Source: Gemmatimonadota bacterium
GTDB taxonomy: Bacteria > Gemmatimonadota > Gemmatimonadetes > Gemmatimonadales > GWC2-71-9
Length of the DNA stretch: 17,707 nt
Reading direction: 5' to 3'
Assembly (NCBI GenBank): GCA_036679605.1
Contig: JAZDCZ010000422.1
Coordinates: 1 to 17,707, forward strand
A program made the translations under genes and the position numbers. Under the pieces are notes generated by a model. The model saw only the letters and a program-made list of their open reading frames with translations, searched no databases and had not been told where the DNA came from. Every line of letters begins with the position of its first letter. Position 1 is the stretch's first letter. Of the stretch, positions 1 to 14,773 are shown piece by piece.

Positions 1-110
1 TGCTGAGCTGATCCAACGATCGGCCTATTACCAGCAGCGCAACGAAGCATCCTACCAAAGCCGCCGCCGATCAGCCCATCGAATGGATTCTTCGTAGCGC
101 TGTCATACTA
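1..110 (+). mobile_element. 3' end of an IS701-like insertion sequence (transposase C-terminal tail plus right end)
   Basis: The frame from position 2 reads AELIQRSAYYQQRNEASYQSRRRSAHRMDSS* (TAG 95-97), then GCGCTGTCATAC running into CTAG at 108-111. Bases 1-110 are the exact reverse complement of 17594-17703. A basic Y-x-Q-R-N...S-x-R-R tail and an end running into CTAG are typical of IS701-family elements (family call from recall). Confidence 0.75.
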
Positions 111-3100
111 GGAATCTGGATAAGTTCTCCTCAGATGTTGCATCCATCCGGTGAACACGGCCTGCGATCGCTGCAATCCTGGGCCCAGAGTAATTCCCTT
201 GGAGGGCCGTTTGCGGGTTTGCAGCGAACAGGATTCGATAAGAATAAGGGCTTTTCTGGCTGATTCCCCTAACAATGCCTACGAATAGGCGTTCGCATTT
301 GTCCTCCGTTCCAAGTTCTTTTATCCAGTGTTTGAATATCTCCATACCTGCCACGGCGTCGGCGAATAGAAGCGCCATGATTGGTGGTTGCGTTTTCTCT
401 TCCGGACATAGAAACACTGTACCGTGCCACTCCGCTTTGTCCCACAAGGCGTCACGAATGAGAGACACCGTCTCTACATCCGTGTGTTTCATCCGAGCAA
501 GATCAAAAACCCCTGGCGGGGGATCCTCCTTGCTTAAGCTGCCCTCAACGCGTTGATGCGTAGCCGGCGTCTCACCACTGCGCGCAGCCTCATACCACGC
601 CAACGACCGTGTTAATGGATAACACGTTGCTGTCGCATCTAACCACTCGGATATGGCGATCCGTGGATTATTCCCCAGGACGCCGCCAGCCGTAATGAAA
701 CTACAGCAGAAATGTAGTGCACGGTCGAGTGCGTTGTCATCCCCGAACAGCTTTCTTGCAGTATCCTCAACGTCCTTGAACACAAAGACCCGTGGCAGCA
801 ACTCGACAAAATCACGCGCCAACTGCTTCTTAAGCATCTTTTGTTCAGCAAATGTAAGGTGATTGGGGTCAAAGGTCGGGCAAAGTATTTCCCAATGCGG
901 CCGGCCATGACGGTCTGTAAACTCTGACTTCCATTCGATGCCGGTATAGGGTGATAGCCGAACTTCGCACGACAATTCTGGTTCCTTGGCCATGATGCCG
1001 TCAGCTAGGCCGGTTGACATCAACCCTTCTAGTGCGGCCAATAATGATTCTGCGACCGCCAGGCACACCACGTCATTCTGACAGACAACCGATACTGCGC
1101 ATCCCAGAATGCGAGACTCAAAGGTAACAGTGCGTTCATCGCAGTACGACGGTTGGCTTGGAAGATCTTTTCCTGCCGGTTGAGCGCGCCACTGAAGGAA
1201 ATATTTTTCAATTGCCACGTCGCCTTTGGCTACCTCTTGGAGATCCTCCTTGACTCCGGTATCTGGCCCCAGTGCGTAACGCAGTGCGAGCGACGAGCCG
1301 TGAAGTCGGTAGCGATCGAGAACGTCAGGGAGCTTCTCTAACCACTTGAGTTGCCAAACATCCGTTCGAAGAAGCAGCAATCCGAGGATGGCATCAAATG
1401 CCGATTCGCCGGGGGCAAGCTGTTCTTGATCGTAGCCCTTTTCAGCCAGCGCGGCGCGCACAGCTAGATCAATCTCATGCCATGCCAACACGAAGGGCAC
1501 TCGGCCCAACCGTAGCTCGACCCATTTCAACTTGTTGAAGCACCTACCTTGCAGGGCGGTGACATTCTCGTATGTCCAAAATTCCTGAACTGCAATTGAT
1601 GCGGCCGCCAGGAGCGTTCCCCGTGCCGCCCAAAGCAAGTCGACTTGCTCGTAGCAGCAAGCGCAAAGGTATAGGGCACGAATAATGTCTTGCCGACTCT
1701 CGTGTTTGTAAAGTCGTACCATAGCCCGGCCCAGCGTACGGATTGCCTCGGCTGGCTCGCCCATATCGTGCTGTTGGGCCGCTCGTCGAAGCAGAAGCCT
1801 GGCTGTGCTAACCTCTTGCTCACGCTGCGACGTTACCGAGATGAGGATTTCAAAAAGCTGCTGATACTCGGGCAGGTTGCCCAGATGCTCCCCCAAGTGC
1901 ATCAGGTAATCCGCTATGGCCTGCATAGGAAAACCAATAAATGCACTACAGTTCTTTATGAGACCGGCGTATTCTGCAAGTACTCCATGAATGTCCTCAG
2001 GCTCTGAGGTCACAAGGCGGATGCTGAGGAGAAGGGCTTGAGCGTTATGCGAGGCGCTGGGTCGGTCTTCCTGATCAATCAGGTGACTAACAACGCGTAT
2101 CAGAGCTTGCGTTCTTTCTCCCAACACCACCTCCTTCTCATTGAGATGGCCCGCTCTAACAAGTGAGAAAAGGACAAACCAAAGATTGGTACGCAGCTCC
2201 ATCTCAAATGGATTCGTGCTGTCCGCGGTGTGCTTCTCCAGTTCCATGTAATACCGAACAAAGTGCTCGTAGTCCTCTTGCCAGAATGCAGCGGTCCAGG
2301 CCCGGTGATACGAGAGTTGATTGCGCTGATGTTGCGTGCCACACTTCGCACCAATGGTTTCGGCCCGGTCGAAGCGACCCATTATTTCGTCGACGTGACG
2401 CTCTAGGCTCCTCGCGATCAAGGCCGACTCAATGGCATCATCCATGAGTTGTGGACCAAATCGTTGCTCCTTGCATGCCGCCGTAACTAGATCATCTATT
2501 TCTTTCAAATCCTGTTCACGTTGAAGGTCGAGCGGTCCTCGTCGAATTAGTGTTCGCGCCACGCCGTGGATTCCAAGGTGCTCCGTGGCCAGCTCTTGTA
2601 GTCCGAGGCCGAAGGTTTTGTCGAGAATCCAGGATCTGTCGAGAATGACGACACCAAACCCGTGCTGAGCACTCAGTTCATCTTGAAGCTCGCCGCGGGT
2701 CTTCGATCGGATGAATTGGTTGCTTAGAAAGAAGGCCTTACGGTAATCACGATTTGTATCGGCGATCTTCTGGATGTCCGAACGTAGCTTATCTCGCCAG
2801 ACTCGCTTTGCGCTGAATGCGAACGCCCACCGTTCTGTGTGGGCACCACCGGAATTGCCAACGTACCATGCCAGCGCGAGATCATTCGCTACCGGGTAGG
2901 TTTCGGTGTCGACCTTTGCATCGCCCCCGCCCATTGGACCCGTCTGGGGGACTAGATTTGGGCAGATCGTATGCTCCGCAAGCTTGCGGGCGAAGGTCTC
3001 AAACTGGGCCTCCTGATTTCGATTCGTGAGCGTGTCGAGATGGTATTCAAGAAGAGAGCGGTCCAACTCTGCGACCTGCTCAACGACGCTGTCAGAGAAA

Positions 3101-3156
3101 CGTTCAGGGTGGCGTGCTTGGAGGAATTCACGAGGTGAGAAACGCCCAGTTTCCAT
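103..3156 (-). CDS. Large (~1017 aa) protein with an N-terminal restriction-endonuclease-like (PD-(D/E)xK-type) domain and helical/TPR-like repeats; putative defence protein, probably C-terminally truncated by the IS
   Basis: The likely start is ATG 3156 (METGRFSPREFLQARHPERFSDS); the extra 189 aa in the ORF track are low-complexity and run across a terminator. Motifs are QFETFARKLAE...QTGPMGGGDAKVD...AFSAKRVWRDKLRSD, followed by long amphipathic helical segments. The stop codon TGA (103-105) lies inside the IS end. GC looks lower than in neighbouring genes. Confidence 0.7.
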   Translation of the reverse strand: METGRFSPREFLQARHPERFSDSVVEQVAELDRSLLEYHLDTLTNRNQEAQFETFARKLAEHTICPNLVPQTGPMGGGDAKVDTETYPVANDLALAWYVGNSGGAHTERWAFAFSAKRVWRDKLRSDIQKIADTNRDYRKAFFLSNQFIRSKTRGELQDELSAQHGFGVVILDRSWILDKTFGLGLQELATEHLGIHGVARTLIRRGPLDLQREQDLKEIDDLVTAACKEQRFGPQLMDDAIESALIARSLERHVDEIMGRFDRAETIGAKCGTQHQRNQLSYHRAWTAAFWQEDYEHFVRYYMELEKHTADSTNPFEMELRTNLWFVLFSLVRAGHLNEKEVVLGERTQALIRVVSHLIDQEDRPSASHNAQALLLSIRLVTSEPEDIHGVLAEYAGLIKNCSAFIGFPMQAIADYLMHLGEHLGNLPEYQQLFEILISVTSQREQEVSTARLLLRRAAQQHDMGEPAEAIRTLGRAMVRLYKHESRQDIIRALYLCACCYEQVDLLWAARGTLLAAASIAVQEFWTYENVTALQGRCFNKLKWVELRLGRVPFVLAWHEIDLAVRAALAEKGYDQEQLAPGESAFDAILGLLLLRTDVWQLKWLEKLPDVLDRYRLHGSSLALRYALGPDTGVKEDLQEVAKGDVAIEKYFLQWRAQPAGKDLPSQPSYCDERTVTFESRILGCAVSVVCQNDVVCLAVAESLLAALEGLMSTGLADGIMAKEPELSCEVRLSPYTGIEWKSEFTDRHGRPHWEILCPTFDPNHLTFAEQKMLKKQLARDFVELLPRVFVFKDVEDTARKLFGDDNALDRALHFCCSFITAGGVLGNNPRIAISEWLDATATCYPLTRSLAWYEAARSGETPATHQRVEGSLSKEDPPPGVFDLARMKHTDVETVSLIRDALWDKAEWHGTVFLCPEEKTQPPIMALLFADAVAGMEIFKHWIKELGTEDKCERLFVGIVRGISQKSPYSYRILFAANPQTALQGNYSGPRIAAIAGRVHRMDATSEENLSRFLV

Positions 3157-3302
3157 GATCGCCCGATTATCGCGGAATCGATCTGCGGCACAAATGGCTG
3201 TTGGACGGTCCGAGAGCAACCGGGGTGTTAACAAACTTGCCCTGTTGAGCGCGAGAGGGAGAGAGTTCGAGAGTTTTCGTCGAGGTGGCGGTGGCAACCC
3301 GT

Positions 3303-3491
3303 ACGGTTGCCTTCGGGGCGACGTTGGAGCTGTTCGAAACCGAGGGCGCAGCCGGTATTGGTGGTGCGCGTAAAGGGTTTGTTCGTCGCGAGTTACGGCA
3401 AATCCACGGACGACTTGAAACGACTCCGACCTGCAAACAAGAAAGGCCCGCGTTGCTCGAACGCGGGCCGGATCTCCCCGAAGGCAACCGT
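3303..3491. repeat. 16-bp perfect inverted repeat flanking a 157-bp segment
   Basis: ACGGTTGCCTTCGGGG (3303-3318) and CCCCGAAGGCAACCGT (3476-3491) are exact reverse complements. Confidence 0.85.
3435..3469 (-). terminator. Intrinsic (Rho-independent) terminator downstream of the moeA-moaA-accessory operon
   Basis: The minus strand reads GGCCCGCGTT-CGAGC-AACGCGGGCC-TTTCTTGTTT: a 10-bp perfect stem followed by a U-rich tract. Confidence 0.8.
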
Positions 3492-3760
3492 TTCGAAGAT
3501 TGGCTGGCGGTTGAGAGGATCGGCGGCAGGGGCAAGACAGGTAAACGGCCCGATTCTCGCGCAGCGGAGGCCTCGCCGGCAGAAACGCCGCCATGGGCGC
3601 ACCGCCGCTCTGTTGGTCACGAACAATCCAGCAGTGGTCCGCTGGAGAACCTCTCCTGCTCATGCCGCCATGCATGCCCGCGACGCAGACATCCGCCTGT
3701 CCTGTACTGAAGGCCGCGGTCATCGGTTACATCGTAGGATGCGGCAGTTGTCACGTGCCG

Positions 3761-4714
3761 CTATGGATCGGATACCTGCTGAAACCATGCAAAATCAAGC
3801 AGATCAACGTCGTCGTCCAGGGCCATATCGAAGACGATAAGGCATTTGGCTGCCGTCGTTGACGGAGGATTCGGTGGTTCGTTCGGGCCGGCTTGGCAAT
3901 CCACGAACTCTCGGAAGTCGTTTAGATTTACCTCCCCATCGCCGTCGAAGTCGCCCGGCACCGGTGTAACCGTGAATGTGGAGACCGGCTGGGTGGGCCG
4001 GTTGCCGTCGAGGAAGGCGCGATTCGTGTGGAAGATCCAGCCGACATTTGCATCAAGGCCATACACGCTGAACACTGCGTCTCCGGGAAGGGCATCGAAC
4101 GCGTATTCGACGGTCACGGATGCTCCCAGCGGCGCGAGATTGACGCCGGTCAGGGCGTACAGCGTCACCATCCCGGTCCCGAACGCGTGGCTGATCGCGT
4201 CATCCGACGGCGACGTTGCCGAGTAGTAACCCGAAGGTCTTCCACTGTCGTAGGTCGGCTGATTGTAATGGCCGAAATCATCAGACGTGTCGAACTCGTA
4301 CGGCGCTGCGCCGTGGAGCCCGAGCGACATTTCGAAGCCATCCGGCAGTTCGTCGGCGTCGATGGCCACTAGGATCAGCAGATCGGTAAACGTTCGAGCG
4401 TCGCCGATGTTCTTGACGGCAAAGCTGCCGGTAAGCGCTGTGGCGACGAGATGGCCTGTATCAAGTCCCCCGTACGAAAACTGCAGAGAATTCATTCCCC
4501 GCGCGCTGTCGTCCGATCGGGCTTGGTCAAAGCCAACCTCGTAATCGCCGGCGTTGACCGTGTGCATGAGAATGCGAACTTGGGGAGGTCCGATGTAAAT
4601 CCACGAATCGTCAACCAGCGCTTCCCAAGGCTCGAACGCGGGTTGGGCGAAGCTGAGTGGTACGACCAGCAGAAATCCCAGTAGTGCTACAAACGTGCTG
4701 CGCAGTATTCTCAT
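3761..4714 (-). CDS. Secreted/surface protein with an uncharacterised beta-rich domain and a C-terminal dockerin/EF-hand-like tail
   Basis: Signal peptide MRILRSTFVALLGFLLVVPLSFA|Q. The C-terminus PVPGDFDGDGEVNLNDF...C...C..FDMALDDDVDLLDFAWFQ is the paired dockerin-like repeat common in Phycisphaerae. An alternative GTG start lies at 4726. Confidence 0.8.
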   Translation of the reverse strand: MRILRSTFVALLGFLLVVPLSFAQPAFEPWEALVDDSWIYIGPPQVRILMHTVNAGDYEVGFDQARSDDSARGMNSLQFSYGGLDTGHLVATALTGSFAVKNIGDARTFTDLLILVAIDADELPDGFEMSLGLHGAAPYEFDTSDDFGHYNQPTYDSGRPSGYYSATSPSDDAISHAFGTGMVTLYALTGVNLAPLGASVTVEYAFDALPGDAVFSVYGLDANVGWIFHTNRAFLDGNRPTQPVSTFTVTPVPGDFDGDGEVNLNDFREFVDCQAGPNEPPNPPSTTAAKCLIVFDMALDDDVDLLDFAWFQQVSDP

Positions 4715-4752
4715 GAAGTTACTCACTCTGTTGTCTCATCCGCAGGGCTAAC

Positions 4753-5355
4753 TTAATGCGTTACGTCGTTGCACCGTCGCAAACGAGAACCGAGTATTCC
4801 GCCGATCAGGCCGGCAAATAATCCGAAGAGCGCGTAGGACATCAGATTGCCCCACTCGCCCGCCGCCCACCAGAGGGCATGCGGTTTGAGCGACATCGGA
4901 GAGGCCAGACGTTTGACAAAGCACACAGTGTTGGCCAGCGCCCCGGCGCTGCCGAGCAGGACGATGAGCCACGGCGCCGCCAGCGCGCGCCGCTCGGCGA
5001 AACCGATCACCGCGTCGAGCACCACTCCGGCAACGCCGATGAGCGCCAGATGTCCCGGCCCGCCGGCAATCTGACCGCCGGTCGCCAAGGAAGCGCACGC
5101 GGCTGCGAGCGCGCCCACGGTGGCGCCTCCCGGCGCGCCCAAACGCATCCGCGCAACGATCACCGGAACCATCCAGAGCAGGGCACGATGACCGGACAGC
5201 CCCAGGTGGAGGCGAAGGTGCGGCAGGAGCAGGCCGGCGCACACGCCCACCGCGGCGCTCCCCAGGAGCATGCGCACCTGCTCGGCGTCAAATAGCCTAT
5301 TCGTGCGGTCGGCTACGTTTTCGATCAACGGGGAGCCATACATGATCGCCTTCAC
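4753..5355 (-). CDS. Integral membrane protein resembling an ECF-transporter S component
   Basis: About 170-200 aa with five to six Gly/Ala-rich hydrophobic segments. The pattern HLGLSGHRALLWM...PGGATVG...AGVVLDA...YALFGLFAGLIG follows the S-component layout. The start is uncertain (GTG 5355, ATG 5343 or ATG 5271). Confidence 0.6.
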   Translation of the reverse strand: MKAIMYGSPLIENVADRTNRLFDAEQVRMLLGSAAVGVCAGLLLPHLRLHLGLSGHRALLWMVPVIVARMRLGAPGGATVGALAAACASLATGGQIAGGPGHLALIGVAGVVLDAVIGFAERRALAAPWLIVLLGSAGALANTVCFVKRLASPMSLKPHALWWAAGEWGNLMSYALFGLFAGLIGGILGSRLRRCNDVTH

Positions 5356-6052
5356 TCCATTCCACGGGAAAAACCGGCTTGCCGTGCATCAGTCGTGGAC
5401 GTACCCAATCAAACGTTTCATATCGATCGTCCGGTGCCAGCCGATGCCGGGATGGTTCGTGTGCAAGCGAAATCCCAAGATCGGCGAATGCTTGCCGGTC
5501 AACCCGCCCGTGTAGCGTGCGCAAGCCCGGCAATTCGATGAATCGTCCGTCTTCCCCGGCGCGGCGCTGTCCGACCGAACCCAATGCTCCGATTACCCCC
5601 TGCCCACGTCCGCTGGGCGGCTCCGCCGAATGCGCGGGGGCCACGCCCAAAGCGCGCAGCTTGACTCCGGGGGACACGCCCACCCGCAATGCCTCGTCGA
5701 TCGTCAGCACGCGTTGTGCTACCAGACACCCGAAGTCCTCGATTGCCGTCGTTACGTCTGCGACCACTGAGATACAGACACCTGGATCGGAGCCGGCCGC
5801 GGACCGTTCCCTGACGAAGTCGAACGCAAAGTCGACCACGCCGATTCCTTCCGGGGACGTCACGGCGATGCAGGCGCCACTGTTGTGTGAGGTGTACGGA
5901 ATGCGCGGGTCCAGTAGAAACTGGTGCCGCGTAACGCCCAGTGGCTGCAAGTTGCGCCGCGCGCACTCCGTGCTGAGTTCACGAGCGAGGTGCCCAGTCC
6001 CGCGACTGGTCGGGTTGTCCGTGTCGTCAATGCCGATCAGGATGACGCACAT
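5297..6052 (-). CDS. Stand-alone TiaS N-terminal-like (GIDDTD) domain protein, probably ATP-dependent; function unknown
   Basis: ATG 6052 gives MCVILIGIDDTDNPTSRGTG...RHQFLLDPRIPYTSHNSG...SDPG...GQGVIGALGSVG. These blocks align by eye with TiaS motifs (GIDDTD, P-x-IP-Y-x-T-x-x-N, NPG, GRGIIGAL). At 251 aa it lacks the OB-fold and Zn-ribbon tRNA-binding domains. Confidence 0.75.
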   Translation of the reverse strand: MCVILIGIDDTDNPTSRGTGHLARELSTECARRNLQPLGVTRHQFLLDPRIPYTSHNSGACIAVTSPEGIGVVDFAFDFVRERSAAGSDPGVCISVVADVTTAIEDFGCLVAQRVLTIDEALRVGVSPGVKLRALGVAPAHSAEPPSGRGQGVIGALGSVGQRRAGEDGRFIELPGLRTLHGRVDRQAFADLGISLAHEPSRHRLAPDDRYETFDWVRPRLMHGKPVFPVEWSEGDHVWLPVDRKRSRPHE

Positions 6053-6062
6053 ACGCTTCTGA

Positions 6063-6704
6063 CTACCTGAAATCGCGGCGCGGGCTGCGTTGGATCCTTT
6101 GTACCGCGCCGTCCAGCGTGAAGTAGTTGATGCCTTTCTTGAACGTCCGATGCGCGGTGCGCTGCCCGCTGAACCACGCATCGCTGATGACCCAAGTTTG
6201 CGAGCTCATCTGGTCGCGCAGGACGCGCGGCCAGGCGACCTCCCACCGCAAAAACGTGCAGACATCACGATTGGTCGTGGCCGCACGGCAGGAGTAATAG
6301 AAATAGCTGATCTGCCCCGCGTTAAAATTATCCGCGGTGAAGCGCAGGTCGGGCCGGCGGATCGAAGGGCAGTAATAGCTGCGCGGATCGTCGACGTTAC
6401 TGCTCTCGCCCAGCAGATCGACCAGTTCGCCGTGCGGATTGTCGAGCTTCTCGTCCACGGGCAGGTACGATGCGTTCGTCCCGGCGTAGAGCAATGTGCC
6501 AATGCCGACGGTGCGCAGACGGGAACCACACACGGTCATCCAGGTTTGCTCGCGGGCCCCCCCAAGTGCCGGCAGCAGCAGCGAAATCAGCAACGCCAAA
6601 AGCGCAATGACCACCAGAAGCTCCACGAGGGTGAAGCCACTCCGTTGCCTGCGCGCGCTGGTGCGCGGCAGCGCAAATGCCGGATTGGGTTTGTCGTTAC
6701 GCAA
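6063..6704 (-). CDS. Prepilin-type N-terminal cleavage/methylation protein (DUF1559-like pseudopilin)
   Basis: It has the cleavage motif RQRSG|FTLVELLVVIALLALLISLLLPALGGARE..C...L, an internal YYCPS and a C-terminal H...G.NY...DG motif. The TTG start at 6704 is 6 bp after the moaA stop. Confidence 0.9.
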   Translation of the reverse strand: MRNDKPNPAFALPRTSARRQRSGFTLVELLVVIALLALLISLLLPALGGAREQTWMTVCGSRLRTVGIGTLLYAGTNASYLPVDEKLDNPHGELVDLLGESSNVDDPRSYYCPSIRRPDLRFTADNFNAGQISYFYYSCRAATTNRDVCTFLRWEVAWPRVLRDQMSSQTWVISDAWFSGQRTAHRTFKKGINYFTLDGAVQRIQRSPRRDFR

Positions 6705-6710
6705 GGGAGC

Positions 6711-7511
6711 TCATCCTCCCATGAGGCTGAACGTGGTTGTCAGGTTGCGCTGGCCCGCCCAGGGCTTGTGATCAATCGCGCGCATGAGCGCGTCCGTGGC
6801 GCCAAACTCGCGAACGCTGAATCCCTCGTCGCTGAACAGGCAGGGACGTACCACGCCGTCACTGCTGAGCCGCAAACGACTGCACCGGGGACAATCGCCC
6901 CCGGCCCCGCCGATCACCGGCCAGAATTCACCGGTTGCGAGATTCATACGGCGGATGAAGCGCACGATGAGTCCGTGCTCCCGCGCGAAGTCCGCCACGT
7001 TCTGCGCGTCCGGCTCATTGCACGATGATTCGATCACGCAGTTCAGCTTGATGCACTTGAAACCGGCTGCCTGCGCCGCCCGGATGCCGGTCAGGACGTG
7101 TTGCACGTTGCCGCCTCGGGATTTGGCGCGGTAGCGTGCGGCGTCGATGGCGTCCAGGCTGATGTTGAGCCGCTGCAACCCCGCCTCGGCGAGCGGCGAC
7201 GCCAGCGCTTCGAGCATCGTGCCATTGGTCGTCATGGAAAGATCGGTCATGCCTGGGATGCGCGCCAGCATGCCGACGAGTTCGACAACGTGCGCGCGTA
7301 CCAACGGTTCGCCACCGGTCAGTCTGATCTTCTTGGCGCCCAACGAAATGGCAGACCGCGCGACTTCGGTGATCTCTTCGAATGTGAGCAGATTCTCCTG
7401 CGGAATAAGCGGCACCCCGCGTTCCGGCATGCAGTAGCGGCACCGGAGGTTACAGCGGTCGGTCACCGAGATGCGCAGGTAGTCGATTGTGCGCCCCCAG
7501 GGATCGTGCAT
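6711..7511 (-). CDS. moaA: GTP 3',8-cyclase (radical SAM), short form, 266 aa
   Basis: Motifs: YLRISVTDRCNLRCRYCM (CxxxCxxC), RLTGGEPL, TTNG, NISLD, the second-cluster motif CPRCSRLRLSSDG...PCL, and the terminal MGG. Confidence 0.95.
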   Translation of the reverse strand: MHDPWGRTIDYLRISVTDRCNLRCRYCMPERGVPLIPQENLLTFEEITEVARSAISLGAKKIRLTGGEPLVRAHVVELVGMLARIPGMTDLSMTTNGTMLEALASPLAEAGLQRLNISLDAIDAARYRAKSRGGNVQHVLTGIRAAQAAGFKCIKLNCVIESSCNEPDAQNVADFAREHGLIVRFIRRMNLATGEFWPVIGGAGGDCPRCSRLRLSSDGVVRPCLFSDEGFSVREFGATDALMRAIDHKPWAGQRNLTTTFSLMGG

Positions 7512-8741
7512 CTAAATCCACTCCTGACAAAACTGCACCACTTCCAGCTCCGCGCCGGCGCTGAGTGACGTGGTCCCGCGTGGAATGACCAGGAATCCGT
7601 CTGCGTGCAGCAGTGCTGTCAAATCGGCGGAGCCGCGGTAGGCCACGGTTGCAGCCCAACCGTCCCGCGAGATCCGACAGGGAACGAACTCCGTTCGGTC
7701 ACCCGATTCTCTTGAGAAGCCGGTGGTCAGACGAAACCTAGATCGTTCCCGCGCGCCGGTGCTACCGCTCAAACGCGCCGCCGCGCGCAGGACGAACAGA
7801 TCAAAAGTCAGGTAAGCTGCCACGGGATTGCCCGGAAGGCCGAACACGAGAGCGCCATCACCCGTGGCGAACGTCGTTGGCTTGCCCGGCTTCAGCGCCA
7901 GGCGCGAAAACTGTATCTGCAATCCGCAAGCGACCATCGCTTCGGGGACGAGATCAAAATCGCCGACCGAAACACCGCCGGTGAGTACGACGATGTCGGC
8001 TTCGCGCCGCGCATGCTGTAGGGCCGCGACGATCGCTGAAAGCTCATCTGGAACGCGCACCGCGCTGAACAATTCCAAGCCGCGCTCGCGCGCCAGCTCT
8101 GAAATCAGCGGGCCGTTGGTGTTTATGATCCTGCCTGGACGCAACTCCGCGACGGAATCCACGATCTCATGGCCAGTCGAGATAATCGCTAGCCGCACGC
8201 GCCGCGTTACCTCTACCTCGGACACGCCGCACCCAATCAGGCACGCCATTTCCAAGGGCCCCAGTCGGCTTCCGGCTGGCAGGATAGTTTTTCCCTGCGC
8301 GACGTTTTCGCCGCGCCGGCGGATGTTGGTCGCTGCAGGTGCGTCCCGAAATTGTACGCGCCCGTCTTGCTCGAAGGCGTGCTCAACCATGACCACCCGC
8401 GCTGTGCCGCGAGGAATCGGAGCGCCGGTCATGACTTTGACGACGTGGCCCGGTGCTAGTGCGGCGCCCTCGCGCTCGCCTGCCGTCGTCGTGTCCGCAA
8501 GGATGTACGCCGCGTGTTCGTCGTCTGCGCGGACCGCGTATCCGTCTACGGCCGCATTGTCGAACGGGGGCAGGTCGAGTTGGGATTTCTCATCGGATGC
8601 GAGGATGCGGCCACCCGCGTGTCGCACGGGTACGGTTTCGCTGGGCATTCGCCAGCCCGCTACGCTGCGGTCCACGGCTTCCAGAGCTTCCTCGAGCGAC
8701 AGCAGGGCGGAGCGCTGACCGGATCCGGAACCTCGGCTCAC
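7512..8741 (-). CDS. moeA: Molybdopterin molybdenumtransferase MoeA
   Basis: Motifs: PPFDNAAVDGYAV, VMTGAPIP, STGHEI, TGGVSVGDFD, KPGKP, GLPGNP. The start is uncertain: GTG 8741 gives a typical ~409 aa, while ATG 8885 has a GGAGG RBS. The stop abuts the moaA ATG. Confidence 0.93.
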   Translation of the reverse strand: MSRGSGSGQRSALLSLEEALEAVDRSVAGWRMPSETVPVRHAGGRILASDEKSQLDLPPFDNAAVDGYAVRADDEHAAYILADTTTAGEREGAALAPGHVVKVMTGAPIPRGTARVVMVEHAFEQDGRVQFRDAPAATNIRRRGENVAQGKTILPAGSRLGPLEMACLIGCGVSEVEVTRRVRLAIISTGHEIVDSVAELRPGRIINTNGPLISELARERGLELFSAVRVPDELSAIVAALQHARREADIVVLTGGVSVGDFDLVPEAMVACGLQIQFSRLALKPGKPTTFATGDGALVFGLPGNPVAAYLTFDLFVLRAAARLSGSTGARERSRFRLTTGFSRESGDRTEFVPCRISRDGWAATVAYRGSADLTALLHADGFLVIPRGTTSLSAGAELEVVQFCQEWI

Positions 8742-8863
8742 TGAATCGTGCCGGTTGGCGTTCTGCCCGATAGCGGTCTGCTGTTCCGATGGCGGTTGGG
8801 GATCTTGGGGACGATCAGAGACCGCGTGTCGCCCCTGCAGCAGGTCGTCGCAAACCCGAAGAG

Positions 8864-8887
8864 CGATATGTTCCGAAAGGCACATCG
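8864..8887. promoter_or_regulatory. Candidate ModE-type operator upstream of moeA
   Basis: CGATATGTT-CCGAAA-GGCACATCG is an imperfect palindrome with the CG-N20-CG geometry of ModE boxes (ATCGNTATATA-N6-TATATANCGAT). It shares AGCGATATG-N10-CACAWCG with the site at 11359-11382. Confidence 0.65.
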
Positions 8888-8977
8888 TGCCCTCCAAGAA
8901 AGCTGCATCCGCTCTCCGACCGCAGTGCCAAACTGTGTTTGGCGGCTTAAACGTCGCCCAGAATGGGCTACAGCTAC

Positions 8978-9006
8978 CATATAAGGATTCCGGTAGTGCT
9001 TTGCAA
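8978..9006 (-). promoter_or_regulatory. Candidate sigma70 promoter for the moeA operon
   Basis: Minus strand: TTGCAA (9006-9001), a 17-bp spacer, then TATATG (8983-8978). Confidence 0.4.
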
Positions 9007-9012
9007 GGGTTT

Positions 9013-9030
9013 TTGTGAAATAATTCACAA
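9013..9030. promoter_or_regulatory. Rex-type operator palindrome (also fits the CRP core)
   Basis: TTGTGAA-ATAA-TTCACAA is a perfect match to the Rex consensus TTGTGAA-N4-TTCACAA. The palindrome extends to 9011-9032 and sits in the AT-rich divergent moeA/modE region. Confidence 0.75.
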
Positions 9031-9052
9031 AATGTCATTCGGACGATATACT
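9024..9052 (+). promoter_or_regulatory. Candidate sigma70 promoter for the modE-like gene
   Basis: TTCACA (9024-9029), a 17-bp spacer, then TATACT (9047-9052). The -35 box overlaps the right half of the Rex-type palindrome. Confidence 0.55.
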
Positions 9053-9134
9053 AGTACTGAGCACCGAGGTCTAGCTCGGTCTTCTTGCCCCGATCGTGGC
9101 ACGGATTCGACCGGCGAAATTGGGGAGGCCGATC

Positions 9135-9614
9135 ATGGGCAGGACCCATCCCGGCCCGCGAACAGGCCAGCCGTTAACACTCAATGATGCGTCAAATGAG
9201 CAGTGGGAGGGCCGCCTGCGTCTGTGGATCAGCGTGGGCGGACGCAACGCGCTCGGTCCAGGTAAGGTCCGCCTTCTCGACGCCATCGATGCCACCCGGT
9301 CTTTGGCGGCCGCCGCCAAGAGGCTTGGCATGAGTTATCGCTTGGCGTGGAAGCACCTCCGGCTCATGGAAGAATGGACGCACATGGCCGTGGTTGAACC
9401 GCGACGCGGTGGGCGCGACGGCGGGGGAACCGTCCTCACCCCGGAAGGACGCGCACTGCTTGCCGCTTATCACGCGTTTCGCAGCGACATGGACGCGCAC
9501 ATGCGCTCCTCATTCAACCGCCGGTTCGCGGTTTGGTCTTCCCAACCACGCCCCGATACGAGCACTGCGGGACCGCCTGCTGATGAAACGGGCGGTGCCG
9601 GTTTCGGATCGTGA
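9135..9614 (+). CDS. modE: ModE-family winged-helix regulator, N-terminal domain only (no TOBE/molybdate-binding domain)
   Basis: LRLWI...LGPGKVRLLDAIDATRSLAAAAKRLGMSYRLAW...RGGRDGGGTVLTPEG is the ModE HTH signature. A GGGGAGG RBS precedes ATG 9135. Confidence 0.88.
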   Translation: MGRTHPGPRTGQPLTLNDASNEQWEGRLRLWISVGGRNALGPGKVRLLDAIDATRSLAAAAKRLGMSYRLAWKHLRLMEEWTHMAVVEPRRGGRDGGGTVLTPEGRALLAAYHAFRSDMDAHMRSSFNRRFAVWSSQPRPDTSTAGPPADETGGAGFGS

Positions 9615-9645: not shown

Positions 9646-10290
9646 TCAGACCTTCGCGTGGGTTAACGCCGCGCCCATGCGCCCCAGCATTCCCTGATCT
9701 GACTGCTGCGACGTTGTATCGACCGGCCAAGTGAACAGCGGGCATAACAAAGGAAACGTCTGCCGCAGGCGCGCAGCCTCCTGGACTCCGCATCCGTCGG
9801 GATCGCTCGTATGAATCACAAGGTCGGTCACCTGGTGTAATACTGCCGCCGTGGCAGGCTTCATTTCACGAATCGGCGGGCGCGTGACCAGCATGACGAC
9901 CGCCGGCTGCATCAGCAGCGCGGCGCTCGAGCTCTCGACGACGATCGCCACCTCCTTGGGAAAACGATCAAGGGCGGCCTGCAGCCCGTCCGTAATGTCG
10001 CGGCCCCGATGCCGGAGTCGTTCCACGTGGAGGGCGCCCGCGGCCAGATACAAGGCGGTGTCCTTGCCCGGCCGGACAAGCTCTTCAGGGTTCTCGAAGT
10101 GGTAATCGGTTGCGGTGTCCGCGTCCGCGGCGCCCTCACCAACAGGATGCTCGTAGGCCGGGCTAATCTTCAAACAACCGAATCCGCCCAGTTGTTTGAG
10201 CAGGTAGATTACGAACGCGGTCTTTCCGGAACCCGAGTGGGGACCCACTACGGAAACGATGGTGCGACCGGCGCCTGGCCGGCTACGCAT
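9646..10290 (-). CDS. MobB-like P-loop NTPase (molybdopterin-guanine dinucleotide biosynthesis-associated)
   Basis: Motifs: IVSVVGPHSGSGKT (Walker A), GKDTALYLAAGA, IVVES. ATG 10290 overlaps the end of fdhD, suggesting translational coupling. Confidence 0.7.
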   Translation of the reverse strand: MRSRPGAGRTIVSVVGPHSGSGKTAFVIYLLKQLGGFGCLKISPAYEHPVGEGAADADTATDYHFENPEELVRPGKDTALYLAAGALHVERLRHRGRDITDGLQAALDRFPKEVAIVVESSSAALLMQPAVVMLVTRPPIREMKPATAAVLHQVTDLVIHTSDPDGCGVQEAARLRQTFPLLCPLFTWPVDTTSQQSDQGMLGRMGAALTHAKV

Positions 10291-11134
10291 CGTTCGCCGC
10301 CACACGTTGGTATCCGGTATAGACATTGAGGCGCTGGCCTCGAAGAAACCCAACGAGGGTCAACCCGAAACGACGCGCCCACTGTACGCCCATCGCAGTT
10401 GGCGCGGACGACGACGCCAGCACGGGCACGCCGTGTGCGATGGCCTTGCCCACGATCTCGGCCGAAAGCCGGCCGGTCGTGAGGGCGATGCGCTGCGAGA
10501 GATCCATGCGGCATTGCAGGGCCTTACCGGCGACCTTGTCGAACGCGTTGTGCCGGCCCACGTCCTCCGCAAACAGCAAGACTTGATCGAGGCTCGCGAT
10601 TCCGCAGGCATGTACCCCTCCCGTCTCGCGATAAAGCTTGCTCTGCCGGCTGAACGCGCGGCCCAGGTCGGTCAACTGGGAAGCGCGGACTACAAGCGGA
10701 CTGTCGAGCGGCTGGCATTCCGCGAGCAGCGAAGTGTCCCGCGCCGTTCCGCCACCACCACAGCCGGTTCCGAAAGTCCATCTTTGATGAATGCTATCGA
10801 CCGCGTCATCGTCGAAGACTCCCGTGCAGACAACCCGTCCGGCGGCGGCGTCAAAGCGCACATCGGGAAGTATCCGGCGCGTCCGCCACAATCCCTCGGA
10901 AACGAGAAACCCCAGCGCCAGCGCCTCGACATCCTCGGGCAAGGCAAGCATGGCGAGTAAGGGCACGCCGTTGAGCACCAACTCGATGCGCCGTTCCTTG
11001 ACCACGGTGTCGTACAGCGCTTCGTGCTGCCCGGAACGGGAGAAGCGGCGGATGGGCCAGGTGGTGGTCCGCTCCGTGTCGCCGGCGGGCGCCGTCGTCG
11101 TCGGGAGTGCCTCAGTCTGTTGTCCGTCTGGCAT
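10283..11134 (-). CDS. fdhD: Formate dehydrogenase accessory sulfurtransferase FdhD
   Basis: Motifs: LALGFLVSEG, GTGCGGG, YRETGGVHA, EDVGRHNAFDKVAG, TTGRLSAEIV.KA, LVGFLRG. The likely start is ATG 11134. Confidence 0.95.
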   Translation of the reverse strand: MPDGQQTEALPTTTAPAGDTERTTTWPIRRFSRSGQHEALYDTVVKERRIELVLNGVPLLAMLALPEDVEALALGFLVSEGLWRTRRILPDVRFDAAAGRVVCTGVFDDDAVDSIHQRWTFGTGCGGGGTARDTSLLAECQPLDSPLVVRASQLTDLGRAFSRQSKLYRETGGVHACGIASLDQVLLFAEDVGRHNAFDKVAGKALQCRMDLSQRIALTTGRLSAEIVGKAIAHGVPVLASSSAPTAMGVQWARRFGLTLVGFLRGQRLNVYTGYQRVAANDA

Positions 11135-11358: not shown

Positions 11359-11382
11359 CGATATGCTTGGCAAAACACAACG
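11359..11382. promoter_or_regulatory. Candidate ModE-type operator between fdhD and fdhA
   Basis: CGATATGCT-TGGCAA-AACACAACG has the CG-N20-CG geometry and the same AGCGATATG-N10-CACAWCG pattern as 8864-8887. Confidence 0.65.
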
Positions 11383-11680: not shown

Positions 11681-14600
11681 ATGCTCGTCACACGTAGAGA
11701 TTTTCTCAGGGTCACTGCGGCATCCGCCGGAGTGGCCGCCATCGGCATGGGCTTCGGGTTCGCCCCCGTTGAAGCGCATGCGGCAAGACTCCGCAAGAAT
11801 CTCCAGGAGGCCACGCGCACCACGACGATATGTCCGTTCTGTGCTGTGGGCTGCGGGTTTGTCGTCCATGCCTCCGGTGGCAAGGTCATCAACATCGAAG
11901 GTGACTCAGACCACCCGATCAACGAGGGGACGGCCTGCTCGAAGGGTTCCTCCATCTTTCAGATGGCGAACAACGACAATCGGCTCACGAACGTGCGCTA
12001 TCGGGCGCCGTTCGCTACCGAATGGACGGAGATGGGCATGGGCGATGCCATCTCCATGATTGCCCAGCGCATCCAGGCGACGCGGGACGCGACGTTCGAG
12101 ACGGTCAATGCCGGCGGAGCCACGGTCAACCGCACGCTCGGTATCGGATCGCTCGGCAGCGCCGCGATGGACAACGAGGAATGTTGGCTATACCAGAAGT
12201 TCTTGAGGGCGCTCGGCCTGGTGTATATTGAACACCAGGCCAGGAACTGACACTCTGCCACTGTCGCCAGTCTGGCGACCGGATTCGGCAGAGGGGCCAT
12301 GACCAACCACTGGATCGACATCAAGAACAGCGATGTCATCCTGATCATGGGCTCGAACGCGGCTGAGAATCATCCCATCTCCTTCCGTTGGGTCACCGAA
12401 GCCCGCGTCAACAACAACGCCACGCTGATCAGCGTCGATCCCCGCTTCACCCGTACCTCCAGTCGGGCAGATATCTACGCCCCGCTGCGGAGCGGGACGG
12501 ATATCGCGTTTCTCGGCGGCATGCTGAACTACATCCTCGAGAACGACCTGATCCACACCGAGTACGTCGTGGAATACACCAACGCGGCGTATCTCGTCGA
12601 CGAGGACTTCAGCTTTGATCCCGCCACGGGTCTGTTCAGCGGCTATGACGCGACCAACCGGAAGTACGACACCACCTCGTGGAACTTCCAAACCGACGCG
12701 ACCGGCGTCATCCTGCGGGACAAGACGCTCGAGGATCCGCGCTGCGTCTATCAGATCCTCAAGGAACACTACCGGCGCTACACGCTCGCGAAGGTCTCGA
12801 GCATCACCGGCACGCCGCAGGACAAGCTGCTCGAGGTCTATAAGGTTTACGTCGAGCGGTCGTACCAGCCCGGGACCTCCGGAACCATCATGTATGCCAT
12901 GGGCTGGACGCAACACACCGTGGGCGCCCAGAACATCCGGACGATGTCCATGATCCAGCTCTTGCTGGGCAACATCGGCGTGGCGGGCGGCGGCGTCAAC
13001 GCCTTGCGCGGTGAATCCAACGTGCAGGGTTCGACGGACCATTGTCTGCTCTTCCACATCCTGCCGGGATACCTCAAGACGCCGGAGGAGCAGTACCCGA
13101 CGCTGGCGGACTACAACGGGAAATGGGCACCGACGGCCCGACCGACCCCGCCGGGCGAACCGTTGAGCGCCAACTGGTGGGGCAACTATCCCAAGTACAT
13201 CACCAGTTACCTGAAGAGCATGTACGGCGACGCCGCGACCGCGGCCAATGACTTCGGGTATGGGTGGCTGCCCAAGCGCGATGCCGGCGGGAACTACGCG
13301 TGGCAGCCGATGTTTGACGCCATGTACAACGGGACCGTCAAGGGCTTCTTCGCCTGGGGTCAGAATCCCGCCAACAGCAGCGCCAACGCCAACAAGGTTC
13401 GCCAGGCATTGGCCAAGCTCGATTGGCTGGTGACCGTCAACATTTACCCGACCGAGACCGCCGAGTTCTGGCGTGGCCCGGATATGGATCCCGCCTCCGT
13501 CGGTACTGAGGTGTTCCAGTTACCCTGTGCCTCTTCTGTCGAGAAGGAGGGCAGCATCACGAACTCGGGTCGCTGGGCGCAATGGCGCTTCAAGGCGATT
13601 GAACCGCCGGGCGACGCAATGCCTGATTCCGAGATCATGGACCAGTTGTACACCGCAGTGAAGGCGCTCTACGACGCCGGCGGCGTGTTCCCCGATCCCA
13701 TTCAGAATCTCAAGTGGGATTACTTCACCGGCGCAGAATTGCCTGCGCGCTTAATCGCCAAGGAGATCAACGGGTACTTCCTCGAGGACTATGAGGAAGC
13801 GGACGGCACGCTGCGTCAGGCGGGCGACTTGGTGCCCAGCTTTTCCAAGCTGCGCGATGACGGCAAAACTTCGTCGGGCAACTGGCTGTACTGCAACTCG
13901 TATACCGATCACGACTTTAACGTGGGCAACAAGATGGCGCGCCGCATCGCCGAGACCACCGGGATCGGTTTGAACCCAGAGTGGTCCTGGTGTTGGCCGG
14001 TCAATCGACGCATCGTCTACAACCGGGCAAGCGTGGACCTCACCGGTCAACCTTACGATGCAGCCACGCCGGTCATCTCGTGGGACGGCGAGAAGTGGGT
14101 GGGCGACGTGCCCGACGGTGGCTGGCCGCCCATGGATCAGGGCGAGGCGTCCAGGCTACCCTTCATCATGCAGCCGGATGGCGTGGGCAAAGCATTCGCC
14201 AACGTTACGGGCGCGTCCACCAACGACGGTCCTGTTCCCGAGCACTACGAACCGTTCGAGTCGCCGTTGGCCGCCAACCCGATGGGCCACACGAGTCGCG
14301 TCAATCCCGTCGCGTTTGTTCCGCCCGCGGCAGAGATGAATCCGCTGGCGGAACCGGGCGGTGCCGACTTTCCTATCGTGGCCACCAGCTATCGCATGGT
14401 GGAGCACTGGCAAACGGGCGTGATGAGTCGATGGGCACCCTGGCTCAACGAGTTGCAACCGGAAATGTGGGTCGAGATGTCCGAGGAGCTCGCCGCGGAG
14501 AAAAGCATCGCCAATGGCGATCGCGTCCGCGTACGGAGCATCCGCGGTGAAATCAAAGCCGTGGCTATCGTCACGAAACGGTTCAAGCCCTTCAACATTC

Positions 14601-14773
14601 AGGGCCAAACCGTTCATGAGGTCGGCCTGCCCTGGTGCTACGGGTGGGCGGCTCCGGTTCGTGATCCCGCCCGGGTCAGCAACGCCAATCTGCTCACGCC
14701 GAACGTGGGCGATCCCAATACGCGTATCCCGGAAAGCAAGGCATTCATGGTCGACGTGGTGAAGGAGGCATAA
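11681..14773 (+). CDS. fdnG: Tat-exported selenocysteine-containing formate dehydrogenase alpha subunit (FdnG/FdhA type, Mo/W-bisPGD), 1030 aa with Sec at codon 190
   Basis: It has a GGAGG RBS, a Tat motif TRRDFL and a 4Fe-4S motif CPFCAVGC...CSKG. EHQARN-[TGA 12248-12250]-HSATVASLATGFGRGAMTNHW joins ORFs 11681-12250 and 12299-14773 in the same frame. Further motifs are ALRGESNVQG, WPVNRRIVYNRAS and PESKAFMV. Confidence 0.97.
12248..12279 (+). promoter_or_regulatory. Selenocysteine UGA codon and bacterial SECIS hairpin
   Basis: TGA, 12 nt, then GTCGCC-AGTCT-GGCGAC (12263-12279). This is a perfect stem with a GU-containing loop at the position expected for fdnG/fdhF-type SECIS elements. Confidence 0.9.

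Follow-up and report, generated by a model that had tools for sequence, protein, structure and literature searches.

The window (the whole stretch of DNA analysed, 17,707 nt) carries a run of genes on the minus strand that starts with moeA (molybdopterin molybdotransferase, 7512..9038; NF007960, E = 2e-86, with the match beginning at residue 112 of the open reading frame and the true start near 8700) and moaA (GTP 3',8-cyclase, short form, 6711..7511; TIGR02666, E = 1e-79). On the same strand the run continues as a cassette of a prepilin-type pseudopilin with the N-methyl motif (6063..6704; PF07963 over cut-off), a 251-residue stand-alone protein related to the TiaS kinase domain (TCKD; 5297..6052), a membrane protein (4753..5355; its likely ATG, at 5343, lies within the 3'-terminal part of the kinase coding sequence) and a secreted protein with a dockerin-like tail (3761..4726). 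The last of these recurs in planctomycete loci and is a candidate surface capture protein; its matches among PDB sequences were dockerins, in the tail only, and neither the ESM Atlas nor a single-sequence metagenome scan returned anything for it. A gene for a protein with a ModE-type molybdate repressor DNA-binding domain (9096..9614, plus strand; TIGR00637, E = 6e-23, below the cut-off) is divergent from the operon, and a formate dehydrogenase cluster lies beyond it. Palindromic ModE-type boxes were predicted upstream of the moeA-moaA-pilin-kinase-S-secreted protein run (8864..8887) and in the gap that separates fdhD from the divergently oriented formate dehydrogenase genes (11359..11382); with these two predicted sites and its modE-type gene, the operon appears to belong to a ModE regulon. 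A MobB-like P-loop protein (9646-10353, minus strand) is encoded between fdhD and modE; in other planctomycete loci, related domains form part of a fusion with MobA. The Tat-exported, formate dehydrogenase-N-type alpha subunit (11681-14773, plus strand) appears in pieces in ORF lists on account of an in-frame TGA (12248-12250), read through as selenocysteine; fdhB, fdhE and the gene for a multiheme c-type cytochrome come next. Towards the contig end region runs a long ORF of lower GC content (103-3723, minus strand; about 1000 residues with a start probably near 3153, GC 0.53-0.56), which had no Pfam match at E ≤ 1 and may be an inserted gene, of NTPase/TPR type or for defence.

The origin of the contig bears on which genomes can serve for comparison. 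Planctomycetes are not known to have ftsZ, and the source assembly has ftsZ over cut-off, only three dockerin-like motifs and 6.3% contamination, with the window contig placed 84/92 in tetranucleotide distance. The closest homologs of the kinase were found in Phycisphaerae and other planctomycete metagenome-assembled genomes (MAGs). The contig may thus be Phycisphaerae-like and misbinned in its assembly, and for this reason we relied on the genomes of relatives. In the phylum to which the assembly is assigned, the kinase family was present in 4/251 genomes and moaC in 246/251; these tallies include unpublished genomes. The genomes of this phylum do not resemble relatives of the window contig, this background is uninformative, and no conclusion was drawn from it. 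A CbiQ-like T component had no match in the source assembly, to which the contig's assignment is doubtful.

The 251-residue protein was identified by profile, alignment and predicted fold. Translation of 5297..6052 gives the motifs GIDDTD (residues 7-12), RHQFLLDPRIPYTSHNS (42-58), SDPG (88-91) and GQGVIGALG (150-158) and not one CxxC pair. Residues of interest are D9-D10-T11-D12, T19 (equivalent to TiaS Thr18), the family-specific R42-H43-Q44, T54-S-H-N57-S58, D89, G169-R170, R178 and R218. The ORF matched the NCBIfam TiaS model NF040849 at E = 4e-8 (score 32 bits, cut-off 600; profile positions 3-152 of 422) and the Pfam TiaS_TCKD model PF22641 weakly (E = 0.002), so the likeness seen by sequence profiles is confined to the N-terminal part of TiaS. 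A profile of 97 family sequences searched against the PDB retrieved the four TiaS sequences there, over TiaS residues 1-151 (E = 3e-11 to 8e-11), and had no other match at E ≤ 1. Homologs numbered 2495 at E ≤ 0.001, the best 120 spanning 236-278 residues, and those at E ≤ 1e-30 formed 450 clusters at 50% identity (median length 247 in the best 150); because so many relatives are of similar length, 5297..6052 is, by sequence comparison, a real gene of a widespread, unnamed family. Matches in the ESM Atlas were confined to unnamed or mis-named clusters. Among distant representatives D9 was conserved in 145/146, T19 in 144/147, N57 in 150/150 and R42 in 149/150, with the DDTD motif at 140 to 145/146. 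In the 150 best representatives at 50% identity, the family-specific residues H43 (147/150), Q44 (144/150), S58 (135/150), D89 (126/150) and R170 (125/149) were also largely kept, as was C61 (121/150), and a CxxC..CxxC ribbon was present in none. Five longer proteins came from a search for fusions (partners: a binding protein, a ModE-TonB receptor read-through and a GlpA-like protein), none of which joins the kinase to OB-fold or zinc-ribbon domains. One locus (L095) has a second, adjoining kinase paralog (7645-8550, minus strand) in which the acidic motif is degenerate and the conserved Thr is missing; it may be a pseudo-enzyme partner.

The AlphaFold model of the protein (pLDDT 92.7) matched TiaS chains in all nine Foldseek hits at E ≤ 0.001 (E = 4e-8 to 7e-5). 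VIA aligned 150 residues to TiaS with Z = 20.4 and an rmsd of 1.9 Å, with unrelated folds at Z ≤ 7.5; a likeness to the pterin pyrophosphokinase HPPK in the fold list (Z about 6.3) was set aside as lying within the common ferredoxin-like range. Across TiaS entries (3AMT, 3AMU, 3AU7, 4RVZ, 5XOB and 3U02) the TCKD fold is shared at Z = 16-20 and an rmsd of about 2 Å. D9-D12 correspond to TiaS D8-D11 and T19 to T18, and R42, T54, N57, G152 and G155 also have TiaS counterparts (R41, T53, N56, G141 and G144 in TiaS numbering), whereas the position of TiaS Arg140 is Gln in the window protein and varies across the family. The aligned range pairs residues 2-221 of the model with 1-243 of TiaS, leaving TiaS residues of about 157-240 mostly unaligned with a shorter insert instead, and PF08489 (the FLD module) gave no match at E ≤ 1 in the ORF, the profile match stopping at TiaS residue 151. 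The original prediction of a bacterial stand-alone TiaS N-terminal module with these motifs, without a Cys zinc ribbon or tRNA-binding domains, is therefore borne out by translation, profile match (TiaS 1-151) and the comparison of predicted structure and catalytic Asp/Thr positions that it had called for, with one refinement: to judge from the model, the FLD module is missing as well as the OB-fold and zinc-ribbon domains of full-length TiaS (about 420 residues), with the shorter insert in its place. Apart from its length, the family further differs from TiaS in its own conserved residues and C-terminal part, in being bacterial, in coexisting with TilS, and in being encoded together with importers. 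A TCKD-like domain outside TiaS is also found in methanogenesis marker 11 (TIGR03280; E = 9e-4, profile positions 135-265), which has 134 extra N-terminal positions and a cut-off of 255.8 bits against the 18.4 bits scored by the kinase ORF. On these profile scores the protein is a member of neither TiaS nor Mmp11.

To establish the gene neighborhood, the best 80 of at least 285 relatives found in genome contigs were combined with the window (81 loci), and neighboring proteins were clustered by all-against-all BLAST. A gene for a membrane protein of about 190 residues directly follows the kinase in 66 of the 75 loci with enough downstream DNA. The nine exceptions comprise L008, in which the S gene is present and failed the motif filter; L046, L047, L050 and L051, in which an ECF ATPase and T component stand next to the kinase (four of all 81 loci), followed in three by a lipoprotein and the S gene; and L038, L039, L042 and L073, with no S gene after the kinase. 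In all 66 pairs the S gene overlaps the 3' end of the kinase gene with one and the same frame offset, its ATG lying 34-67 nt inside, and the wobble base that creates this ATG is T in 43/47 cases compared to 472/836 elsewhere in kinase genes. The conserved overlap and the excess of T at the synonymous base that makes the ATG indicate selected translational coupling at the sequence level, in agreement with the proposed tie between the enzyme and the adjacent S-like protein. The window membrane protein is a putative, YkoE-like protein of the ECF S-component type, with weak scores (PF09605, E = 0.086; S-family profile against YkoE [5edl], E = 0.038); PF09819 matched 7/33 aligned S-family members (best E = 3e-6, in loci with an ECF T component and ATPase).

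Beyond this pair, the transport genes vary between phyla. A TonB-dependent receptor occurs in 28/55 non-planctomycete loci and its cluster is absent from all 26 planctomycete loci, of which 25 have the pseudopilin (0/55 others) and 19 the secreted protein, dockerin- or PEP-CTERM-tailed. In the reverse direction, among 80 metagenome loci with the secreted protein, the pilin and kinase were present in each of the 18 that extend 2.2 kb or more to each side, and the S gene in 17 of these 18. In Bacteroidota (L043, L044, L045, L048, L061, L074, L079 and L080) an unnamed lipoprotein of about 300 residues sits between the S gene and the TonB receptor, often with a T9SS-tailed protein after the receptor; in several of these loci a ModE-type box precedes the gene for this lipoprotein. 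In Bacillota the kinase was found in 18/251 genomes, and a BtuCD/FecCD-type ABC transporter, whole or in part, lay beside it in all 13 loci read, often accompanied by a secreted protein and by a small ORF rich in Cys; the kinase is likewise paired with a BtuCD/FecCD-type ABC transporter on a haloarchaeal plasmid. HI_1472, which we take to be the molybdate-binding MolA of MolBC-A, was the second-best PDB match of the Bacillota binding protein (E = 4e-24). The Cys-rich ORF (about 70 residues, no NCBIfam match) directly follows the kinase in L090 (7254-7466), L091 (7362-7574), L092 (8141-8344) and L094 (7438-7653), and in P0123-P0125 it is fused to the kinase, ahead of a GlpA-like FAD oxidoreductase. 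In 17 loci, mostly of Chloroflexota, the gene for a small lipoprotein precedes that of the kinase. The top match to a model of this Chloroflexota lipoprotein was PruR (7kom, E = 5e-5), then Moco domains of the sulfite oxidase family, placing it in the SUOX-type fold by predicted model, and no Cys was conserved in the aligned mature domain. The accessible part of PMC11194511 describes PruR (7KOM, 7KOS, 7RKB) as binding small non-Moco pterins in a truncated Moco cleft. PruR shares its fold with the partner lipoprotein of Chloroflexota and Bacillota loci and signals to a diguanylate cyclase, whereas the PruR-fold lipoprotein lies in an uptake operon, and is missing from the window. Near the cassette in L034, L047, L063, L067 and L070, and in L049, L079 and L080, larger lipoproteins with repeated SUOX-like domains have wtpA-type tungstate ABC genes as neighbors.

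At least one molybdenum or tungsten (Mo/W) cluster was found in 52/81 loci, and none of those scored (modE/moeA, moaA, moaC, MOSC-MogA, mobA, fdhD, formate dehydrogenase, tupA/modA, wtpA, mop and a PBP-type regulator) in 29/81. The ModE-type palindrome has the core RTTATGT-N8-RCATAAY in the part of PMC12327845 that was accessible. A relaxed form of it gave 35 matches across the loci compared to 15-28 in shuffled sequence, a weak enrichment, and a sharper form with flanking CG gave 14 matches at ≤1 mismatch (0-1 in 10 shuffles) and 29 at ≤2 (1-8 in shuffles), with both the sharper and the window pattern refined after matches had been seen. Most boxes of the sharper form stand at the start of an operon; in L058, L064 and L078, for instance, they lie 64-66 nt ahead of the kinase. 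The window box at 8864 has three mismatches to the general pattern, and the same variant occurs in L006, L016, L032 and L061. A relaxed form was also found in 22 of the 80 independent metagenome loci, in most of them immediately ahead of the gene for the secreted protein, with some near-duplicates among these loci and no shuffle control. In Bacillota, RF01055 (the Moco RNA motif) was present in 7/13 loci and directly before the operon in six; no riboswitch reached the gathering score in the window. In three cyanobacterial loci the kinase/S pair stands beside a nifH-type gene, taken to be vnfH, and a PBP-type regulator, taken to be VnfR2. In the accessible portion of PMC4284476, VnfR2 is a Mo-dependent repressor.

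Whether the cassette follows the metal or its pterin cofactor was addressed with genome profiles. In 251 Bacteroidales genomes, a single sample of one order consisting mostly of incomplete MAGs, the kinase was present in 40 and moaC in 115, both together in 38, leaving moaC in 77/211 non-carriers. None of the 22 nifD genomes carries the kinase, and 19 of them are without moaC; Bacteroidales that need Mo and not the pterin were therefore not found to keep the kinase gene. Fisher tests gave P = 8e-13 for moaC and P = 0.002 for nifD, naive values since related genomes are not independent. AOR-family enzymes are usually tungsten enzymes; their genes were present in 15/15 carriers compared to 9/15 moaC-positive non-carriers (15 of the 38 and 15 of the 77, taken in list order). 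In Bacteroidales, the one order profiled, the kinase family is confined to makers of the pterin cofactor. The link to Mo/W-pterin biology in the original prediction is supported by gene context, ModE-type boxes, RF01055, the PruR-fold lipoprotein and the Bacteroidales profile (moaC in 38/40 carriers, AOR 15/15, nifD 0/22), a profile of the kind that it had proposed. A general supply of Mo for nitrogenase was not supported (0/22 nifD Bacteroidales with the kinase). Among 50 carrier genomes from the 80 loci (one of them unpublished) 47 had moaC, and replacement of de novo synthesis by the cassette was rejected on this count.

Our preferred reading, to which we give a probability of roughly 40%, is that the kinase is an ATP-dependent, cytoplasmic member of the cassette that phosphorylates, and so traps and reactivates, an imported Mo/W-pterin cofactor or its dephosphorylated form. 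It is based on the TCKD motifs and predicted fold, the pairing with importers, the Mo/W context, the Mo-type regulatory elements and the confinement to makers of the pterin cofactor in Bacteroidales, and from these we infer a Mo/W pterin as the substrate. Action on the cargo is the most likely arrangement, because one enzyme family accompanies three unrelated transporter types. Importers of organic or chelated ligands were found in every lineage examined. Phosphoryl transfer to a hydroxyl would be the simplest chemistry, since the kinase core is kept and the amine-binding module is gone. In vitamin salvage, cofactors cross membranes dephosphorylated and are then trapped by a kinase, and S-components or TonB receptors are paired with trapping kinases in the YkoE/ThiT-type thiamine, RibU/RibF and PnuC/NadR systems. 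The cassette shares with these modules an organic-cofactor importer, an adjoining kinase in the cytoplasm and control that responds to the cofactor or to metal, as well as the S-family profile match to YkoE; it differs in its Mo/W-pterin context, and the vitamin kinases are of unrelated fold. Under low Mo/W or cofactor the ModE box or Moco riboswitch would be off, and the compound would be captured by the TonB receptor, PruR-fold lipoprotein or BtuF-type binding protein or, in the window, by the secreted protein and pseudopilin, and handed to the S-component. The kinase would bind ATP-Mg via D9, D10 and D12 and transfer phosphate to a side-chain hydroxyl, in most loci pulling uptake through the S-component without an ATPase, and the phosphorylated product would pass to MoeA/MobA. 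Several points count against this salvage reading. There is no auxotrophy pattern and carriers keep de novo synthesis; PruR lacks the Moco cleft and binds non-Moco pterins; and the neighboring tupA/modA/wtpA/mop genes, ModE control, the nifH-type neighbor and the HI_1472 likeness fit metal acquisition equally well. Free Moco is oxygen-labile.

The last of these genomic points lead to the alternative that survives best, in which the cassette imports Mo/W on an organic chelator (metallophore), and phosphorylation of the ligand or activation of the oxyanion by the enzyme unloads the metal for MoeA. Metal chelates are the typical cargo of TonB receptors and binding proteins of the BtuF/FecB class, the operons carry Mo-sensing regulators and ModE-type boxes beside the metal-transport genes, and the small Cys-rich ORF after the kinase in several Bacillota loci could aid reductive release. 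MolBC-A of Haemophilus influenzae, the Type II ABC importer whose HI_1472 resembles the Bacillota binding protein, is molybdate-repressed and of low affinity for molybdate, and no kinase partner is described for it in the accessible part of PMC4031551. We nevertheless consider import on a chelator unlikely: the 22 nifD Bacteroidales genomes without the kinase include 19 that need Mo without moaC, the capture slot holds lipoproteins of the PruR/SUOX fold, and the recurring neighbor clusters include no chelator-synthesis genes.

A second alternative stays closer to TiaS, which phosphorylates the carbonyl oxygen of C34 before it is displaced. By the same chemistry, a carbonyl oxygen on a pterin or on cPMP might be phosphorylated and displaced by an amine or sulfide, in cofactor repair or as a stand-in for molybdopterin (MPT) synthase. 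C61 is conserved in most of the family, and many carriers are without moaE, which was present in 2/25 Bacteroidales, 2/12 planctomycete and 0/10 Bacillota carriers. Against this, moaE was present in 8/8 Chloroflexota carriers and missing in 18/25 moaC-positive Bacteroidales non-carriers too (2/25 carriers compared to 7/25 non-carriers with moaE, P = 0.14); replacement of moaE by the kinase gene is therefore not supported, there being no clean anticorrelation between the two. The agmatine site of TiaS is in the FLD module, which the window protein is missing. The original prediction had proposed ATP-dependent carbonyl activation or amination of a pterin- or nucleotide-like molecule; the kinase core agrees with its ATP-dependent part, and amination is less likely because the FLD is unaligned and the Arg140 position is variable. 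Carbonyl activation is on the whole improbable. It is also worth noting that moaE was unmatched in many moaC-positive anaerobes (41/50 Bacteroidales, 10/12 planctomycetes and 10/10 Bacillota), where the MPT synthase step is unexplained.

TiaS converts ATP to AMP, and its gamma-phosphate goes to a substrate oxygen or, in autophosphorylation, to Thr18. The TiaS kinase domain acts on RNA and protein according to the accessible part of PMC11938285. A regulatory or protein kinase, in which autophosphorylation of Thr19 or phosphorylation of the transporter gates or energizes uptake and leaves the cargo unchanged, is very unlikely: transporters as unrelated as the S-component, ECF and BtuCD-type ABC systems share the family, which argues for a common small-molecule substrate, and many conserved polar residues (H43, Q44, S58, D89 and R170) are absent from TiaS. 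Finally, a split TiaS half modifying tRNA-Ile2 or another RNA with a separate RNA-binding partner, for which homology to TiaS and nothing more speaks, was rejected as having almost no chance of being right, since TilS was over cut-off in 29/30 carrier genomes (including that of the closest Phycisphaerae relative, L001) and in the source assembly, where no separate TiaS C-terminal half was found and the sole NF040849 match was the kinase gene itself; recurring neighbors include no RNA-related gene, and the family is patchily distributed (40/251, 18/251 and 4/300 genomes). A role in tRNA work is accordingly unlikely on genomic grounds, as the original prediction had assumed.

Returning to salvage of a Mo/W-pterin cofactor, the broader claim is that environmental Mo/W cofactor is scavenged by a dedicated pathway, made up of capture proteins of several kinds, an S-component for pterins and a TiaS-derived kinase class, with the planctomycete pseudopilin and secreted anchored protein replacing the TonB receptor; we hold this only tentatively and regard it as rather doubtful. 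According to the accessible part of PMC13259868, it is not known how pterins cross the membranes of bacteria. A search of the openly available literature returned no paper on the kinase family, no described bacterial Moco uptake or salvage and no function for methanogenesis marker 11, and the accessible parts of PMC7694415, PMC6313347 and PMC12584684 hold nothing on the family. The cassette names candidates for each step of Moco uptake. If the reading is correct, Moco reuse via the cassette would be an undescribed route for bacteria, the TiaS kinase domain would gain a second chemistry outside tRNA, and one planctomycete pseudopilin family would be tied to a single regulated cargo. In two planctomycete loci (L019, 1119-2069; L020, 6495-7352) a DNRLRE-domain protein of the PEP-CTERM type lies between two pseudopilin genes, replacing the secreted protein, and a MOSC-MogA fusion recurs in planctomycete operons.
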